This document shows, in pieces, positions 17,881 through 30,412 of a DNA stretch of 35,471 bases. Under the pieces are notes generated by a model. That model saw only the letters and a program-made list of their open reading frames with translations. It searched no databases and was not told the origin of the DNA. Source of the stretch: a virus; UHGV virus genome UHGV-0047541; one strand, 5' to 3'. How positions within the stretch are numbered: the stretch's first letter is position 1; each line of letters starts with the position of its first letter. The position numbers and the translations under genes are program-made.

Positions 17881-18780
17881 AAAACGCACATTTGTTAACA
17901 TTTACACAAAGTCTGCGTGGGATATTCTGAAAGAATATCCATAATGTGGAGAGAATCTATTGAAGTGCATGGTGCCGGGTGCCTCCCGGTGAACAAAACG
18001 TTCGTGATACCTGTCGGCGACAGAAAAGGTTAATGGTATCACCCCACCGCACAGGGGGATTCACCATGCAGGAGTTTTCTTAGCAAACTCTCTGCGCGCC
18101 CGGCAATTCCCAACCACATAAAATGCGGAGTTTGTAGCATTTATGCATATAACTCGCAGGAATTATCTTAAAAAACTGATGTCGATCCGGATTAAAAAGA
18201 AGCAGGTCATCATCAGATGACTGGAAAAAAGGAAAACAAAAAATACTCATCGTACAGTTTTGATTGCAGGGATGAGCCTGCTATGCACAATATACAGAAT
18301 ATAAGCAAGATAAAAATATGCAGGCATATTATTTCGGATTTTGTTATTAACACAACCTTTTTAATAATCATTTGGCATACAATAAACCAGCCCAAAAAGA
18401 ACCGCCTAAACAGGCGGTTGGTCAATACAAAGGATGCTTCGTCTTTATTATAGTAATCTGAGGCGTCGGCCCCCCCGAAGTATTCCGCACTGCATGGATA
18501 CTGTGGTTTCCCGCTAAATCACTATGTAAACCACCCTCGCACTGAGGAACATCTTTTTAGTGTTATTTACAACACCGGGATAATGCATCATCGGCCCTGC
18601 CAGGAAATACAAAATCTCCACCGATAATGCACCATTCTGCTGCCGTAAAAAGATCAGCACTGAGGCTACACCCGGCCTCAAATAATAGCCAGAGAACAGA
18701 ATGCTTTTTCAAAACAACCAGCTCCCACGTAGTAAAAAAATACGCCAGTGCCGCAATACAATAAGGCTTGTTTCAAATGC

Positions 18781-18855
<75 letters not shown>

Positions 18856-18858
18856 ATA

Positions 18859-18934
<76 letters not shown>

Positions 18935-18936
18935 AC

Positions 18937-19013
18937 TGGACCGCCACCGGAGACTCGAACCTCGCACACTCAACTTAAAGGGTTGATGCTCTTCCCTGAT
19001 GAGCTAGTGGCGG
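18937..19013 (-). tRNA. atypical tRNA-like gene (anticodon loop CCUUUAA, putative UUU/Lys, C at position 33; possible pseudo-tRNA)
   Basis: 77 nt with 7-bp acceptor stem CCGCCAC/GTGGCGG, D and anticodon stems, TTCGAGT T-loop, encoded CCA; non-canonical C33 and T-stem mismatch. Confidence 0.5.
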
Positions 19014-19014
19014 T

Positions 19015-19090
19015 TGGTGGCCCTTGCTGGATTTGAACCAGCGACCTGGCGATTATGAGTCGCTCGCTCTCACCACTGAGCTAAAGGGCC
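19015..19090 (-). tRNA. tRNA with CAU anticodon (ileX/ileZ-like tRNA-Ile2, formally Met)
   Basis: 76 nt, GGCCCTTTAGCTCAGTGGTGAGAGCGAGCGACTCATAATCGCCAGGTCGCTGGTTCAAATCCAGCAAGGGCCACCA; close to recalled E. coli ileX. Confidence 0.8.
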
Positions 19091-19663: not shown

Positions 19664-20746
19664 ATGAAAAAATTAACAGTGGCAATTTCTGCTGTAGCTG
19701 CATCAGTACTGATGGCGATGTCTGCTCAGGCAGCTGAAATTTATAATAAAGACAGTAACAAGCTGGATCTGTACGGGAAAGTTAATGCTAAGCACTACTT
19801 CTCCTCTAATGATGCAGATGATGGCGATAAGACCTATGCCCGTCTTGGCTTCAAAGGTGAAACCCAAATCAACGATCAACTGACTGGTTTCGGTCAGTGG
19901 GAATATGAATTCAAAGGCAACCGCGCTGAATCTCAAGGTTCCTCCAAAGATAAAACCCGTCTTGCCTTCGCTGGCCTGAAATTCGGTGACTACGGCTCCA
20001 TCGATTATGGCCGTAACTACGGTGTAGCATACGATATTGGTGCATGGACCGACGTTCTGCCAGAATTCGGTGGCGATACCTGGACCCAAACAGATGTATT
20101 CATGACTGGTCGCACCACAGGTGTTGCAACATACCGTAACAAAGACTTCTTTGGCCTGGTAGATGGTCTGAACTTTGCTGCTCAGTATCAGGGTAAAAAT
20201 GACCGCACTGACGTAACTCAAGCTAATGGTGATGGTTTCGGTTTCTCCACTACTTATGAGTATGAAGGATTCGGCGTAGGTGCAACCTATGCTAAATCTG
20301 ACCGCACTAATAATCAGGTTATCTACGGTAACAACAGCCTGAATGCATCTGGTCAAAATGCTGAAGTATGGGCAGCTGGTCTGAAATATGATGCGAACAA
20401 CATCTATCTGGCTACTACCTATTCTGAAACCCAAAACATGACTGTTTTTGGTAAAAACCATATTGCCAACAAAGCACAAAACTTCGAAGTAGTTGCACAA
20501 TATCAGTTCGACTTCGGTCTGCGTCCGTCCGTTGCTTATCTACAATCTAAAGGAAAAGACTTGGGTGCTTGGGGTGATCAGGACCTGGTTGAATATATTG
20601 ATGTAGGTGCAACCTATTACTTCAACAAAAATATGTCCACTTTTGTTGACTACAAAATCAACCTGATTGATAAGAGCGATTTCACGAAAGTATCTGGCGT
20701 TGCTACCGATGATATCGTTGCTGTAGGTATGGTTTACCAGTTCTAA
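19664..20746 (+). CDS. OmpC/OmpF-family general porin (NmpC/Lc-like lysogenic-conversion porin)
   Basis: 360 aa, signal peptide [39 protein letters not shown]..., C-terminal MVYQF; AT-rich upstream region. Confidence 0.9.
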
Positions 20747-20934: not shown

Positions 20935-21333
20935 TTAATTAGAGTTATTAATAACGATATCCATCTCTAACCGGATATCTAATGCCATTAACATCCCTTC
21001 AATTATGCCCTCAGCCTTCTGTAACCTTTTCCCGATATAACCATCAGAGCAGCAATGCTTACCTGCCAGTGACATGAATGTCATACCGACTACATAATAA
21101 TCTACTAATAAATCGTGCAAATCGCTGTTGTTCTTTTTCAGACGGGCCATGCACCCGCAAATGATCATCGCGTCATCGTCACAACATTGCAGGCGAGATT
21201 TTACTTTTGAAGGAATTAATCCCTTAAAACCGGCGGCAATGGACGACCAGGTCACATCTTCATGATTATTAGCCGCCCACGCTCCCCAACGTTCAAGAAC
21301 CATCTGAATATCACGCATCAACTTACTCCACAA
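20935..21333 (-). CDS. late-gene antiterminator Q (QuuD/phage-82 type)
   Basis: 132 aa, ...[34 protein letters not shown]...CGCMARLKK...; position immediately upstream of the late region. Confidence 0.8.
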
Positions 21334-26367: not shown

Positions 26368-26588
26368 GCTGCACCTCCGAGATGCTTCATGTTTTTTCCG
26401 GAGCGAAAGGCTATAAGCGGCATACTGACGCGGTAATTACGACCCAGCGGTTCACAAATCACCTTCTGACATTCACGGTCCACCAGGCTAACACGTAGAA
26501 CATGCCCTGCAGACGTGGTGTACCACTGACCGGGGCGAGGACAACGGAAAGTCTGATTGGTAAATCGTTTGAAAATATTCCGGATCAT
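26364..26588 (-). CDS. hypothetical small protein
   Basis: 74-aa ORF with overlapping start/stop coupling. Confidence 0.4.
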   Translation of the reverse strand: MIRNIFKRFTNQTFRCPRPGQWYTTSAGHVLRVSLVDRECQKVICEPLGRNYRVSMPLIAFRSGKNMKHLGGAA

Positions 26589-27736
26589 TTGCGCCCCCTT
26601 ACCTCTGAAGAGTTCAGCGACGAATGAATAAGACGGGCAAGAAATGCCGCATCGTTAATTCGGTCATACAGACTTACAGCCAGCGGTGATTCAGCTTTTT
26701 CCAGCATGGGATAAAGCTGCTGCAACCAGACCTGATGAATTGATGAAATGTAGGAATAGAGAACGCTGGCGTTATGTGCAACGTCGCTCGGTACAGAGGG
26801 CTTTGAAAGCTGTTTCTCCATCTGGTTAAAGGCATTGATGTATGCCTCTTTGAACTGGGCAGCACGTTTACCCGTGAAACCCATAGCAAGAAACGCAAAA
26901 CCGTCGCGTGTGATTTGGTAGCAAGGAAGTTTGCGACCTGTGCAATCAGTGTAATCACTCACCGAAAAATTGCGGGCAGTGAATGATGCTGAGCATTCAA
27001 GCGTGCGGATCTTTTTCAGTACATCGTCATGACGTTTAGAGAAGAAGTCAGCAACAGCCAAAGAAGATGTAACAGCCTGACCATCAACGATGGCAATTTC
27101 AGGTTGAGAGATGGTTGGGAGAGTAGTCATGGTGACAGCCCCGGTAGTCAGTTTTTTAGAAAACTCACCACATGGGACGCCAATCACAGAGGTGGTGAGA
27201 CGTACAGGGTTGGCGTTACCGGAGACTACCGAACCCGGCCCGACCGAAGTCGGCCCTGTACGCCCCACCATAATTTGGGCGTAGCAATGCTCATGACACG
27301 AAAAAACCGCATGAGCGCGGTTATGCTCAGTAATCAATTTCAGGACGCCAATCCCGGCACCCGCTTTATAAGGTGCCTGAACAGTGTAACGTCCCGGAAT
27401 GGCAGAATCAATGTGCTGGTGGTCCTTCACACTCAACAAAATCACGCCTGAATTTCCACAAAGGACTAAAGCACTCATGCGGGTAGTCTTTGCGAAGATA
27501 GATAACGCGCTGTGTTTCTGGCTCCCAACGAATAACATGGACATAAAGCCCTCTTCCGTCACGAAACCAGCGGTTAAGTTCCTGCACAACTCGCCCCCCA
27601 CAGTCAGGTAAAGTTCTCTGTGGTTACTTACAGCCAGGTGATTTGGTAATCTGCATTCATGCCGTAACAACAGGTGTTCAGCGACGCTGACCACCTGCTG
27701 TTGCGACAAACGGTTATTTGCCGTTAAACTGTTCAT
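26585..27736 (-). CDS. Rha-domain regulatory protein with about 200-aa N-terminal extension of unknown function
   Basis: 383 aa; residues about 205-300 IAIVDGQAVTSSLAVADFFSKRHDDVLKKIRTLE...YQITRDGFAFLAMGFTGKRAAQFKEAYINAFNQME are Rha-like; N-terminal 200 aa open in the same frame. Confidence 0.6.
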   Translation of the reverse strand: MNSLTANNRLSQQQVVSVAEHLLLRHECRLPNHLAVSNHRELYLTVGGELCRNLTAGFVTEEGFMSMLFVGSQKHSALSIFAKTTRMSALVLCGNSGVILLSVKDHQHIDSAIPGRYTVQAPYKAGAGIGVLKLITEHNRAHAVFSCHEHCYAQIMVGRTGPTSVGPGSVVSGNANPVRLTTSVIGVPCGEFSKKLTTGAVTMTTLPTISQPEIAIVDGQAVTSSLAVADFFSKRHDDVLKKIRTLECSASFTARNFSVSDYTDCTGRKLPCYQITRDGFAFLAMGFTGKRAAQFKEAYINAFNQMEKQLSKPSVPSDVAHNASVLYSYISSIHQVWLQQLYPMLEKAESPLAVSLYDRINDAAFLARLIHSSLNSSEVRGRK

Positions 27737-28284
27737 GCGTTAGTTTCTCCACAGACACAAAACGCCACGACGCCCGGAGCTGCACACTCGCGGGCGTCAC
27801 TCTTTTCTGGAGCGCAAAAGATTTTGTAGACCAGTGCTGCATGCTCCTGGAGCTTCGAAATTGACAGATACAACTCATCATTAATTGCTGTCTGCTCGTG
27901 TGGCTCCACTACCCCATCTTCGATTGCCGAACGAATCTGCTTTGAGTAACTCCCGATCTGTTCGATGACTTCCAGCAGGCGCTGGTTTATATCGGCGTTC
28001 TCTACTTCCTCAATTTCAGGAAGCGATACAAACACCCCACCAGCAGACTGTGCGACAGCATCCGCAATGTGGTGAGTACCAGCCGCACGCTGTAAAACCA
28101 TTGCCCATCCCAGCGGAAAAAACTGATCGCCATCGGCACGAAGGCGGTTAAATAATGCGTTCTCTGTTACATCCAGCCAGTCAGCAGCTTCAGCGTAACC
28201 ACCTGGCAATGCCGCGATAGTTTTTCTGACAGCTTTCACGTACCACTCAGGTTGTTTTTCCACTTTCCAGTGATGCTTACCCAC
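27733..28284 (-). CDS. CII-like regulatory protein (by position; possibly Phage_CP76 family)
   Basis: 183 aa immediately downstream of cro-like gene. Confidence 0.45.
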   Translation of the reverse strand: MGKHHWKVEKQPEWYVKAVRKTIAALPGGYAEAADWLDVTENALFNRLRADGDQFFPLGWAMVLQRAAGTHHIADAVAQSAGGVFVSLPEIEEVENADINQRLLEVIEQIGSYSKQIRSAIEDGVVEPHEQTAINDELYLSISKLQEHAALVYKIFCAPEKSDARECAAPGVVAFCVCGETNA

Positions 28285-28537
28285 GGCTTACCTCCTGTTC
28301 CTGTGGTTTTAACTCATTCCGGTTTTGACTAGATTGAAAGCGTGCAGGATAGAGAATCTGCATTTCGCTGATTTCTCCCTTAAAAAAATTGGCCAGACGC
28401 TCTGCAAGATCGATAGATGGAATTTGTTCCAGTCTCTCAATACGACTCAGCGTTGCTGGATTAACCTGAACGCCCGCAGCAACATGCTGCAAAGTAAGCC
28501 CGTGCGCCTTACGCACATTTCGTAATGGTGATTGCAT
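28277..28537 (-). CDS. Cro-like HTH (XRE family) repressor
   Basis: 86 aa, KAHGLTLQHVAAGVQVNPATLSRIERLEQIPSIDLAERLANFF HTH; divergent from cI-like gene. Confidence 0.8.
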   Translation of the reverse strand: MQSPLRNVRKAHGLTLQHVAAGVQVNPATLSRIERLEQIPSIDLAERLANFFKGEISEMQILYPARFQSSQNRNELKPQEQEVSRG

Positions 28538-28634
28538 ATAACCTCCACATATTGCGTGATAAGCATATTATTTCACGCAAATATTTTGCGCAAGTTGATT
28601 TGCTTAACGCGCAATAAAGAAATGTAATAAACGC
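28538..28634. promoter_or_regulatory. oR-like divergent promoter/operator region between cro-like and cI-like genes
   Basis: 97-bp intergenic region with dyad elements TTGCGTGATAAGCAT (28552-28566), CGCAAATATTTTGCG (28576-28590) and TTGCTTAACGCGCAA (28599-28613). Confidence 0.6.
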
Positions 28635-29327
28635 ATGAACATAGGAAATCGAGTCAGACAACTTCGCCAGGCGAAGAACATGAAAATCGCCGATCTCGCT
28701 GAAGCAATAGGAGTGGATGCGGCGAATATCTCGCGCCTGGAAACAGGTAAGCAGAAACAATTCACTGAACAAGCTCTGAGTAATATTGCCAGGAGCTTAG
28801 GTGTTGATATTGCTGATCTCTTTACCTCAGACTTCAAAAGTAATACTGTATGTAAAAACAGTATTAGTGAGGATGTTGCGCAGGTGAAGGATGTATTCCG
28901 TATTGAAATGCTGGATGTCAGTGCCAGTGCGGGAAATGGCCTTATCCAGGGCGGTGATGTCATTGATGTGATTCATGCCATTGAATACAGAACTGATAAT
29001 GCTGTATCGATGTTTGGCGGACGACCAGCCAATCACATTAAAGTTATCAACGTTCGTGGGGACAGTATGTGTCCAACCATTGAGCCAGGAGATCTCATCT
29101 TCGTTGATGTCAGTATCAATCAGTTTGATGGAGATGGTATCTATGTATTTGGTTTTGATGATAAAATTTATGTCAAACGACTGCAAATGATACCTGACAA
29201 ACTACTGGTGATTTCTGATAACCAGATTTACCGTGAATGGGGAATTACCAGCGAAAATGAACACCGGTTTATGGTCTTTGGAAAGGTCTTAATCAGCCAG
29301 TCACAAACCCTTAAGCGACACAATTAA
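28635..29327 (+). CDS. CI-like prophage repressor (HTH plus LexA-like S24 peptidase domain)
   Basis: 230 aa; N-terminal HTH (IGNRVRQLRQAKNMKIADLAEAIGVDAANISRLETG), C-terminal VRGDSMCPTIEPGDLIFVD and KIYVKRL Ser/Lys dyad. Confidence 0.85.
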   Translation: MNIGNRVRQLRQAKNMKIADLAEAIGVDAANISRLETGKQKQFTEQALSNIARSLGVDIADLFTSDFKSNTVCKNSISEDVAQVKDVFRIEMLDVSASAGNGLIQGGDVIDVIHAIEYRTDNAVSMFGGRPANHIKVINVRGDSMCPTIEPGDLIFVDVSINQFDGDGIYVFGFDDKIYVKRLQMIPDKLLVISDNQIYREWGITSENEHRFMVFGKVLISQSQTLKRHN

Positions 29328-29347
29328 CCCTTACCTCCTCATCAATT

Positions 29348-29374
29348 AGCCACCCGAAGGTGGCTTTTCATTTT
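29348..29374 (+). terminator. intrinsic terminator after cI-like gene
   Basis: AGCCACC-CGAA-GGTGGCT hairpin followed by TTTTCATTTT. Confidence 0.7.
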
Positions 29375-29382
29375 CCATAAAA

Positions 29383-29421
29383 TTGCACATCTCGCAATAA
29401 AAACACTTGCATAATGCGCAA
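29383..29421. promoter_or_regulatory. oL-like operator pair
   Basis: Two TTGC-N7-GCAA dyads: TTGCACATCTCGCAA (29383-29397) and TTGCATAATGCGCAA (29407-29421), same motif as in the oR region. Confidence 0.5.
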
Positions 29422-29449
29422 CTTCATTTTATCTTTCTTTCCAGACCAA

Positions 29450-30049
29450 CAAACAAGGTACTAACAAAATTTGGTTGTAACACGGCGTATGGCACATGCG
29501 TCGTTAGCGGTCTGGGGACGTTAAAGGGGACAATCCACTCCTTGCTCGGGCAAACAAACCAGGTAGCCGGAATGTGCAAGTCAATGATGATGCTGATAAG
29601 ACGCCTAACCAGCGTGGCGATTCGGTTTGACGCCTGGGAAGAGACCAGGGTGCAACGATGAGGGCATTTATGGAACCGCCACAAAGTGTGGTGCCGTAAC
29701 TGGCTAAGTGCTCTCAGCGTTGTGGTGAATGCGCAGGCTGATGCGCGAAAGACATTGCAGCTATTGCGGAAAAGAGCTGTTCGGCGGGGCAATTAAATGC
29801 CCGTGAGAGTCTGAAATAACCGCAAGCCGGAGATCAGCACCGGTCACCACAACAGCCACTGCTTTGGCGGTACCAGTTTGTACACTTGCTTCCGGCTGGT
29901 ACCGCTCTTTTTACAAAACAGAGAAGAGCATCACCGGACGACGGGCTCATAACCCAATCCACCCGGGCGGCTGCCACCGCAGGTGTTCTTCTCTGTTTTG
30001 TGGAGAAACCAACCGACCTTGCAGGGTCGATATGATGAGGAGCAGCAAA
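29450..30049 (+). ncRNA. long structured untranslated leader of the leftward early operon (candidate cis-acting antitermination/processing element; no N gene)
   Basis: About 600 nt without credible ORF; nested inverted repeats (GGGCATTTA/TAAATGCCC; GCGGTACCAG/CTGGTACCGC followed by TCTTTTTA; 15-bp ACAAAACAGAGAAGA/TCTTCTCTGTTTTGT) and a boxA-like CGCTCTTTTTACAA. Confidence 0.4.
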
Positions 30050-30412
30050 ATGGCTAGCGAACGCAGTACTGATGTGCAGGCATTTATCGGGGAGCTGGAC
30101 GGCGGCGTATTTGAAACCAAAATCGGCGCAGTTCTCAGTGAAGTCGCTTCAGGTGTGATGAACACGAAAACCAAAGGTAAGGTCTCACTCAACCTGGAAA
30201 TCGAACCATTTGATGAGAACCGTGTGAAAATCAAACACAAACTCTCATATGTTCGCCCGACTAACCGCGGGAAAATTTCCGAAGAAGACACCACCGAAAC
30301 GCCGATGTATGTCAATCGCGGTGGTCGCCTGACTATTCTGCAGGAAGACCAGGGACAATTACTGACTCTTGCCGGTGAACCTGACGGAAAACTCCGCGCA
30401 GCAGGTCATTAA
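30050..30412 (+). CDS. yfdP: YfdP-like protein (120 aa)
   Basis: Start MASERSTDVQAFIGELDGG at 30050 with GAGG RBS; length and position match the CPS-53 yfdP-yfdQ-yfdR order. Confidence 0.55.
   Translation: MASERSTDVQAFIGELDGGVFETKIGAVLSEVASGVMNTKTKGKVSLNLEIEPFDENRVKIKHKLSYVRPTNRGKISEEDTTETPMYVNRGGRLTILQEDQGQLLTLAGEPDGKLRAAGH

Follow-up and report, generated by a model that had tools for sequence, protein, structure and literature searches.

How is the early-left operon of a lambdoid prophage controlled when no N gene precedes it? The question was raised by a viral DNA of 35,471 nucleotides (UHGV virus genome UHGV-0047541; this whole stretch is called the window below), which carries a prophage of the lambdoid SfV/SfII/mEp460/ST64B type. 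Between its repressor gene cI and the gene yfdP lies a region of 720 nt, and no gene was annotated there in RefSeq (best 25 matches among E. coli genomes). Our analysis indicated that this gap is probably a non-coding, conserved and folded 5′ leader of the early-left operon yfdP-yfdQ-...-xis-int, working as an RNA-made stop-and-process module with a terminator, a trimmed small RNA (sRNA), and a read-through transcript that is cut at a long hairpin (hairpin 2). As a class, the element is a prophage leader sRNA with its 3′ end at an intrinsic terminator. The parts of the leader were as follows.

29475..29650, plus strand: 5′ leader domain, a multibranch structure with hairpin A at 29483-29503 (loop UAUGGCACAUG), the conserved GGUAGCCGGAAUGUGCAAG, and the hairpin CCUGG-GAAGAGA-CCAGG at 29634-29650
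29652..29723, plus strand: hairpin X, with a 17-19-bp stem, CACAAC..AAGAGCAUU / AGUGCUCU..GUUGU
29718..29911, plus strand: sRNA-17, consisting of a tRNA-like multibranch domain, a spacer and the terminator hairpin (full-length primers from PMC7719688 Table S2)
29719..29853, plus strand: tRNA-like domain, with the closing stem GUUGUGGUGA/UCACCACAAC at 29719-29728/29844-29853
29729..29843, plus strand: swappable interior cassette of the tRNA-like domain
29866..29912, plus strand: intrinsic terminator (hairpin 1), GCGGUACCAG-N19-CUGGUACCGC and a U-tract
29913..30001, plus strand: hairpin 2, a three-way junction closed by a lower stem of about 22-25 bp; a candidate site for RNase III-type processing
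29942..29955, plus strand: CGGGCUCAUAACCC, identical with the initiator tRNA(fMet) of E. coli over its anticodon stem-loop, with a GGG/CCC stem and the loop CUCAUAA
30002..30009, plus strand: GGAGAAAC, a Shine-Dalgarno (SD)-like word directly 3′ of hairpin 2, conserved across genera
30013..30052, plus strand: weak hairpin 3, the SD sequence GAGGAG (30037-30042) and the yfdP ATG (30050)

The sRNA at the centre of the leader was mapped by Sun et al. (2020; Front Microbiol 11:574833, PMC7719688) as the 193-nt sRNA-17 of an mEp460-like prophage in E. coli K1 RS218, by Northern blot in the lysogen and by 5′ and 3′ rapid amplification of cDNA ends (RACE). It was placed on the window by mapping the published primers, and all 16 of them, together with the 50-nt Northern probe, matched with 0-1 mismatch. 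The 5′-RACE primers were antisense to the plus strand and the 3′-RACE primers were sense, indicating that sRNA-17 lies on the plus strand and ends at the U-tract of hairpin 1. The 3′ RACE end in this U-tract was 29911 (PMC7719688; the prophage is 98-99% identical), and the 5′ RACE end, 29718, preceded the tRNA-like closing stem by 1 nt. As the published quantitative reverse transcription PCR amplicon mapped to 29469-29864, a longer transcript covers this 5′ end. Furthermore, the promoter scan found no sigma-70-like hexamers preceding 29718, and the conserved bases just before it were the 3′ strand of hairpin X. Position 29718 was therefore read as a putative processing site and not as a primary start. 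It would fit cleavage by RNase P and would equally fit a cut in hairpin X. The original prediction had suggested a processing site or a riboregulator; the direction was right, 29718-29911 being a published sRNA with its 5′ end at the foot of hairpin X.

The 3′ end of sRNA-17 coincided with a genuine terminator, as the original prediction had supposed for this stem and U-tract. Hairpin 1 had a perfect 10-nt stem, GCGGTACCAG/CTGGTACCGC (29867-29876/29896-29905), a 19-nt loop, and TCTTTTT at 29906-29912. It was missed by a generic terminator scan only because its loop exceeded the limit of 8 nt. A GC-rich stem directly before T5-7 was found in 40/40 distinct, genus-diverse leaders with the terminator and hairpin 2 module, and among these loci the stems differed in sequence and still paired (GGCGGUACCAG/CUGGUACCGCC, GGCGGCCA/UGGCCGCC, GCCCAUC/GGUGGGC, and others). 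The boxA-like motif claimed at this place, GCTCTTTTTACAA, was present at 29904-29916 and proved not to be conserved. GCTCTTT occurred in only 2/40 of the listed terminator ends, the others reading CCGCCC, CCGCAA or GGGCACC followed by T5-7. The motif is merely the 3′ end of the terminator stem with the U-tract in the E. coli variant, and its resemblance to the rrn boxA was considered accidental because the sequence elsewhere reads CCGCCCTTTTT.

Beyond this terminator the early-left operon was silent in the lysogen, with 0.49 reads for yfdP in the wild type. In the published deletion, 29744-29861 was replaced by a chloramphenicol-resistance (CmR) cassette and hairpin 1 was left intact; compared with the wild-type lysogen, the reads rose from 0.49 to 47 for yfdP and from 0 to 8.5 for yfdR (PMC7719688).

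The 661-nt leader folded better than its shuffled versions, with z values of -3.4 on the plus strand and -4.3 on the minus strand (20 shuffles per strand). The relatives compared were 80 viral contigs, fetched through the YfdP protein, and 68 genome loci from other species; single relatives are named below by their L numbers. Folding and covariation across relatives, a check put forward in the original prediction, showed that the terminator hairpin, hairpin 2 and further helices were kept with compensatory changes across genera. The result was in agreement with the long, structured, non-coding leader on the plus strand described there, and the four repeats listed were all present, with coordinates a few bases off. 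The long-range pairing of GGGCATTTA with TAAATGCCC did not survive. It was a perfect match of 9 nt (29662-29670/29794-29802), which was not above chance, with about 1.2 perfect 9-mers expected in 800 nt. The 5′ arm, GGGCATTTA, was part of the conserved hairpin X, and the 3′ arm, TAAATGCCC, was inside the cassette, which is exchanged between leaders that are 99% identical elsewhere. An Rfam scan, likewise put forward there, gave nothing in the leader, either in the whole window at gathering scores or in 29250-30150 at E<=10; on 20 related loci at gathering scores, the single match was a tRNA.

Hairpin 2 covaried strongly. An alignment of 40 distinct sequences (MAFFT and RNAalifold) gave 17 consensus pairs, 11 of which were compensatory, and 96.6% of the cells paired, compared with 25-63% in slid controls. 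None of 500 shuffles reached any of the five measures, and the long stem was formed in the individual fold of every sequence. In the window, ACAAAACAGAGAAGA/TCTTCTCTGTTTTGT formed a perfect 15-bp stem within 25-nt arms (29913-29937/29977-30001) that were 84% complementary, so that the 15-bp stem noted earlier was real. The changes often ran in a U-G/C-G/U-A series. Such wobble changes indicate that the pairing works only in the plus-strand RNA, which speaks against the binding site for a dimeric protein that had been considered for these repeats. No complement of the hairpin-2 loop was found elsewhere in the window.

Hairpin X had a pairing partner in 23/23 diverse loci, with p<=0.01 against shuffles in 19 of them and with compensatory variants. 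Hairpins X and 2 shared a common design, the 5′ strand reading CACAAC...AAGAGCAU and the 3′ strand GUGCUCUU...GUUGUG. RNase III recognises about two turns (at least 20 bp) of near-perfect duplex, whatever the sequence. Hairpin 2, with a lower stem that was long and almost unbroken in the predicted fold of every sequence, had these features of a candidate RNase III substrate, and the stem of hairpin X was 17-19 bp long. Moreover, the last 5 nt of hairpin X also begin the tRNA-like closing stem, and therefore the two helices compete; the 5′ end of sRNA-17 was in this overlap.

In the tRNA-like domain, the 5′ strand of the closing stem was followed by a 3-nt spacer, a D-like hairpin (29731-29746), the variable interior, and a T-like hairpin, CCGG-N9-CCGG (29827-29843), abutting the 3′ strand. 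The GUUGUGG...CACAAC stem closed a multibranch loop in the independent minimum free energy folds of 23/23 homologues from many genera. A hairpin followed the 5′ strand after 2-3 nt in 19/23 folds, and a hairpin abutted the 3′ strand (gap 0) in 19/23. The T-like hairpin had 7 different stems, which were always complementary (such as CCGG/CCGG, GGUG/CACC, GUGG/CCAC and CCAG/CUGG). The predicted folds thus had the topology of a tRNA, in which an acceptor-like stem is stacked on a T-arm-like hairpin and a spacer of 2-3 nt leads to a D-like hairpin. In Phytobacter, the same slot (L103 2222-2300, L111 1186-1264) was called tRNA-Ile(aat) by ARAGORN and scored 52.8 bits with the Rfam tRNA model; the anticodon of this tRNA-like gene, AAU, is unusual. 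The slot of Yersinia massiliensis (L138 2169-2296) scored 40.3 bits with the tRNA model and had canonical D and T arms, with a 60-nt insert replacing the anticodon arm.

The STnc100 model (RF02076) matched the same slot and the terminator end to end in L087, L083, L092 and L130 (35-45 bits; E 9e-7 to 4e-4). The scores of the allelic leaders were 45.1, 36.9, 35.1 and 34.7 bits, compared with a gathering threshold of 47, and the STnc100-like alleles included those of E. coli (L087), ST64B and Buttiauxella. The leader element resembled STnc100/PasD in its closing stem of 8-10 bp, AAU spacer, hairpin, branches, T-arm-like CCGGGAGGCACCCGG abutting the 3′ strand, spacer and intrinsic terminator. It differed in its place, since it lies in the early-left region after cI and is flanked by two long hairpins, whereas STnc100 is downstream of Q. 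The leader sRNA is therefore a relative of STnc100 by architecture and, being below the 47-bit threshold, not a member. Among known prophage sRNAs, PasB (in the structural operon) and PasD (near Q) were ruled out as the leader sRNA, and svsR was ruled out as a leader element, being at the 3′ end of cI. Most relatives carried a conserved single-stranded word, UUGCUGUGUGUAGUC (for example L087 2300-2316), after the tRNA-like domain and before hairpin 1. This word could be a seed or an Hfq site; the window was without it and had AGCCACUGCUU in its place.

The interior of the domain behaved as a cassette. Leaders that were about 99% identical on both sides carried a wholly different interior (L077, L059, L031, L062 and others), and the alternative block was of the Izhakiella/Erwinia type (L126/L151). 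The cassette type was not linked to the immunity region and assorted independently of it. The variable interior is likely the specificity part of sRNA-17.

At least part of the 720-nt region was found in 2692/5426 complete E. coli genomes, and it was matched in 177 phage records, including mEp460, cdtI, Stx2a/Stx2c phages and SfII. E. coli carriers of leader parts included Stx2 and cdt phages and ST131 strains. Since 486 of the 3910 matching places in E. coli genomes were on plasmids, some carriers may be phage-plasmids. The gap from cI to yfdP was 629-993 nt in mEp460, SfII, ST64B, phiNP and phage LLS, and the mEp460 and SfII records have hypothetical open reading frames (ORFs) there. A scan of about 58 genome loci placed the closest ORF of at least 120 aa on the upstream side at a distance of 139-2031 nt, and of about 450-1700 nt where it was a repressor. 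Every relative examined thus had a long stretch between cI and yfdP in which no ORF reached the size of a repressor. The leader was mosaic, with break points at about 29463, 29716, 29837 and 29865, and the boundary of the immunity module was at about 29454-29463. The final 185 nt always co-occurred with yfdP. Short leader blocks were 90-94% identical in Erwinia and Mixta, where YfdP was only about 60% identical.

These parts can be joined in a mechanism, which we consider more probable than its alternatives. Transcripts would enter from the presumed early-left promoter pL, or by read-through out of cI in the lysogen. Folding during transcription would produce the 5′ domain, hairpin X, the tRNA-shaped domain and the strong intrinsic terminator. 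Most polymerases would halt at hairpin 1, and yfdP with the genes behind it would stay silent in the lysogen; the block to entry into yfdP...xis-int is shown by the conservation of hairpin 1, the mapped 3′ end and the silence of yfdP. A cut where the base of hairpin X meets the 5′ edge of the tRNA-like stem would then trim the terminated RNA to the stable 193-nt sRNA-17, whose two ends are mapped. In read-through RNA, hairpin 2 would probably be cut by a double-strand-specific RNase, which would free the yfdP message from the leader with a 5′ end beside the SD-like GGAGAAAC. The candidate enzymes would be RNase P and/or RNase III. The cut at hairpin 2 is proposed because of the analogy with hairpin X, the lambda N leader and the metY-nusA-infB operon.

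Several points weigh against this mechanism. Both the cleavage at hairpin 2 and the enzyme making the 5′ end of sRNA-17 are putative. The sRNA allele of the window itself was not matched by the Rfam tRNA or STnc100 models at E<=10. The closing stem barely covaried, with a score of 0.129 vs 0.103 and 5/500 shuffles reaching it, because the stem is nearly invariant in sequence. The 5′ domain, for which RNAalifold gave 39 pairs, 11 of them compensatory, in 7 sequences (Kosakonia, Phytobacter, Klebsiella, Citrobacter and E. coli), was present in a minority of relatives, about 8 of the roughly 58 loci, and it is an accessory part and not core. In addition, the inserted cassette may itself have raised yfdP in the deletion strain by read-through; the loss of a control element need not be involved. 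Cassettes of the Keio design read towards priming site P1; if this one does so, polar read-through would most simply account for the rise. No conserved RNA antiterminator was found to pair with hairpin 1, which seems strong and would have to be passed by lytic-phase transcripts. The test for such a partner compared the best duplex between the upstream leader and either terminator arm with 100 dinucleotide shuffles in 40 loci; no upstream segment paired better than the shuffles (median p 0.40/0.46), and the window's own upstream match, at 29671-29681, had p = 0.10. A simple RNA switch was therefore rejected as the control of hairpin 1. Finally, the RACE of Sun et al. does not distinguish a primary end from a processed one (PMC7719688).

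An RNA-based second immunity or attenuation system was considered as an alternative and appeared unlikely. The P4 CI, P1/P7 C4 and N15 CA RNAs are processed, tRNA-like leader RNAs that control termination. By analogy, sRNA-17 would enforce termination in trans or on the nascent leader, or would exclude related phages, with the cassette as its specificity. The leader resembles these systems in that a small structured RNA of tRNA-like shape directly precedes a terminator and is made in lysogens, and a C4/isrK-type RNA is present in the right operon of the same phage. However, no sequence or model similarity was found, the Rfam C4 model did not match the leader element, a search of the leader gave no complementary target boxes, and there was no conserved complementarity between the upstream leader and the terminator arms. 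The exchange of the interior between otherwise identical leaders is a pattern typical of specificity determinants, but the cassette was independent of both the flanking leader and the immunity region, and therefore no nearby cis partner co-varies with it.

A further possibility, no stronger than the preceding one, concerns hairpin 2. From its sequence, it may be a translational operator or a decoy that mimics the initiator tRNA, its GGG-CUCAUAA-CCC arm, beside an SD-like GGAG, contacting the P site of the 30S subunit and initiation factor 3 (IF3) or methionyl-tRNA synthetase (MetRS) to control yfdP, or serving as a sink for a VapC-type anticodon nuclease; such a role could coexist with the stop-and-process function. 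The 14 nt of CGGGCUCAUAACCC matched metY exactly, with 1.4e-4 matches expected by chance, and the anticodon CAU was at 29948-29950. GGG-YUCAUNN-CCC was kept in 28/40 hairpin-2 variants, 15 of which were exact, and this stretch was the most conserved of the leader, being 90-94% identical where YfdP was about 60%. On the other hand, 12/40 variants, from Serratia, Yersinia, Providencia, Rahnella, Xenorhabdus and others, had no arm motif and kept the long stem, and so the stem and not the arm is the universal feature; the arm could also be a mere relic of a tRNA gene. The conserved GGAGAAAC on the 3′ side has no start codon at SD distance, which speaks for the mimicry and rules the word out as the start of a small ORF. 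No description of an initiator-tRNA anticodon-arm mimic in a phage leader was found in the literature searched. The E. coli metY-nusA-infB leader, as Regnier and Grunberg-Manago reportedly described in 1989, consists of a tRNA, terminators, an RNase III hairpin and genes. The order of parts was the same when the layouts were inspected, and the initiator-tRNA anticodon arm occurs in both. They differ in that the homology is limited to the 14-nt arm, that the tRNA-like part of the phage leader is not a functional tRNA, and that the arm lies in the downstream hairpin; homology to the metY-rimP spacer was ruled out beyond this arm.

Both features could also belong to one double tRNA-mimicry device, a speculative extension of which we are doubtful. 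In such a device, a tRNA-shaped sRNA with an exchangeable cassette would be released by tRNA- and dsRNA-processing enzymes, and the copy of the initiator anticodon arm would engage the 30S P site/IF3 or MetRS, or would decoy a VapC-like nuclease.

Closer to yfdP, hairpin 3 read GGCGGUGGCAGCCGCC in other genera and has lost a pair through a single change in E. coli variants. The 10-mer GTGGAGAAAC, to which the SD-like word after hairpin 2 belongs, also stands before other genes; it occurred 10 times in the window compared with 1.8 expected (20241, 27743 and 30000, and seven copies with one mismatch). The copy at 27743-27752 was directly before the start of the downstream gene, and the 10-mer is probably the phage's preferred ribosome-binding context.

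The earlier proposal of an HK022 put-type element, a processive antiterminator RNA that would act in cis and render pL transcripts resistant to terminators, is now very improbable. Put RNAs suppress downstream terminators by acting in cis on RNA polymerase (beta′ zinc-binding domain). The leader shares with putL/putR the position of a structured, conserved RNA element just downstream of the early promoter in a lambdoid phage without N, and the downstream terminator must somehow be passed. The put family has the pattern GAACGGC...GUCGG...GGCGGGUUCAGGAUGAACGGCAAU with two stems. A covariance model built from 7 RNAs (HK022 putL and putR, HK639, phiEt88, CobraSix, S9-5 and PdC23), which gave 95.6, 93.2 and 58.9 bits for the controls, found no match in the window or in the leaders of 30 relatives with a cut-off of E<=10, and the invariant core GGCGGGUUCAGGAUGAACGGCAAU was not in the leader. 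Hairpin A has the CGGCG/CGUCG stem of HK022 putL stem I and a 9-nt word of it, CATGCGTCG; the match of the word was at chance level (E 7.3), a blastn of putL against the leader gave chance words only, and the likeness was taken as chance because the put model did not score hairpin A. Moreover, the 5′ domain was absent from most relatives that keep the terminator.

For the lambda type of antitermination, the likeness was limited to a long leader with a long hairpin before the first early-left gene, as in lambda nutL with its RNase III site. Unlike lambda, the leader had no conserved boxA, no boxB and no N-like Arg-rich protein. The earlier statement that there is no N gene was confirmed, as no conserved ORF was found on either strand, nothing was annotated in RefSeq, and PHROGs gave no N-like protein among the early genes. 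The Q-like protein (20935-21333) was the only antitermination protein in the PHROGs scan of 20 early-left and right-operon ORFs. No second, nutR-like copy of the module was found in the right operon.

That the region codes for small proteins, or that a dimeric protein binds its inverted repeats as DNA, is hardly credible: although phage records annotate hypothetical ORFs here and the ORF 29729-29806 begins MRRLMRER, the ORFs considered (minus-strand ORFs of 122 aa and 47 aa annotated in mEp460, a plus-strand ORF of 84 aa and an Arg-rich one of 25 aa) were ruled out as genes, since they were not conserved across the mosaic breakpoints, crossing 29463 and 29727-29843 and being destroyed by the cassette swap, the Arg-rich ORF ended after 6-7 codons in L123 and L118, the 122-aa and 84-aa ORFs had no Pfam match in a region left blank by RefSeq, the indels of 2-27 nt in hairpin 2 ignored the reading frame, and the stems keep pairing by strand-specific G-U wobble at the RNA level.

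The surroundings of the leader were those of an early control region, with the following features.

27733-28284, minus strand: CII/CP76-like gene
28277-28537, minus strand: cro
28635-29327, plus strand: S24 repressor cI
29348-29375, plus strand: intrinsic terminator 3′ of cI from the terminator scan, AGCCACCCGAAGGTGGCT (hairpin 29348-29365) and a T-rich tail
29383-29397 and 29407-29421: two oL-like operators, TTGC-N7-GCAA, both exact palindromes
30050, plus strand: ATG of yfdP, whose protein belongs to phrog_204

The SfV and SfII records annotate a terminator at the position equivalent to 29348..29375. The oL-like operators claimed earlier are plausible, because the same palindrome recurs at oR, exactly at 28600-28614 and with one mismatch at 28552. 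The promoter pL is presumed to lie at 29383..29421, where a sigma-70 scan found no promoter. On the 3′ side of yfdP follow, in order, yfdQ (DUF2303), a dNMP phosphatase gene, a PAPS-reductase-like gene, an exonuclease gene and an excisionase gene.

In the rest of the window, the Rfam models of C4 antisense RNA (82 bits) and isrK (59 bits) matched 27188-27376 on the minus strand, inside the ORF 26585-27736 (minus strand). This position corresponds to the N-terminal third of a 383-aa 'Rha/antirepressor' ORF in which the Pfam domains begin only at residue 116; the ORF is probably over-called, with the C4/isrK RNAs sitting before the real antirepressor gene. Its SfV homologue, orf37, is annotated 'immunity region'; the SfV record puts orf37 in the right operon, and this region was ruled out as a yfdP leader. 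A full-length STnc100 (87 bits) was found at 17913-18099 (minus strand), downstream of the Q-like gene and of four tRNA genes (18784-19090) and upstream of two phrog_5772 paralogues and ORFs of lysis-gene size. It resembles the leader RNA of a late operon, and its build was the same as that of the early-left element. Two large overlapping ORFs, 19664-20746 (plus strand) and 19703-20500 (minus strand), occupied the interval from Q to the tRNA genes; the latter had no PHROG match, and both may be moron cargo.

The sRNA-17 paper described a stand-alone, trans-acting sRNA with its own ArcA-controlled promoter, and ArcA-P bound a fragment spanning 29469-29718 in vitro (PMC7719688). In our analysis, the same RNA is a piece of the early-left leader. 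That paper contains neither the tRNA-like fold nor the terminator/attenuator role, hairpins X and 2, the yfdP leader context, the cassette variation or the spread in Enterobacterales. What is already known is the central RNA, and its relatives touch an Rfam family; what is new is the tRNA-like nature, the role of the sRNA as the piece of the early-left leader bounded by the terminator, the twin long hairpins, the cassette behaviour, the initiator-tRNA arm and the breadth of conservation. A published 'virulence sRNA' is thereby recast as one piece of an early-left control region and linked to the STnc100/PasD family, and the deletion phenotypes are therefore read differently, with yfdP raised about 95-fold in cis. 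The copy of the initiator arm and the swappable cassette are concrete leads that are cheap to test. If the double mimicry were true, it would couple early-left expression or phage survival to the state of the host initiator tRNA, and temperate phages would then possess a cis regulator or decoy of a new kind. Prophages of at least 20 enterobacterial genera share the layout of the leader core, and it offers a testable model for the insulation and processing of early-left transcripts in lambdoid phages without N.

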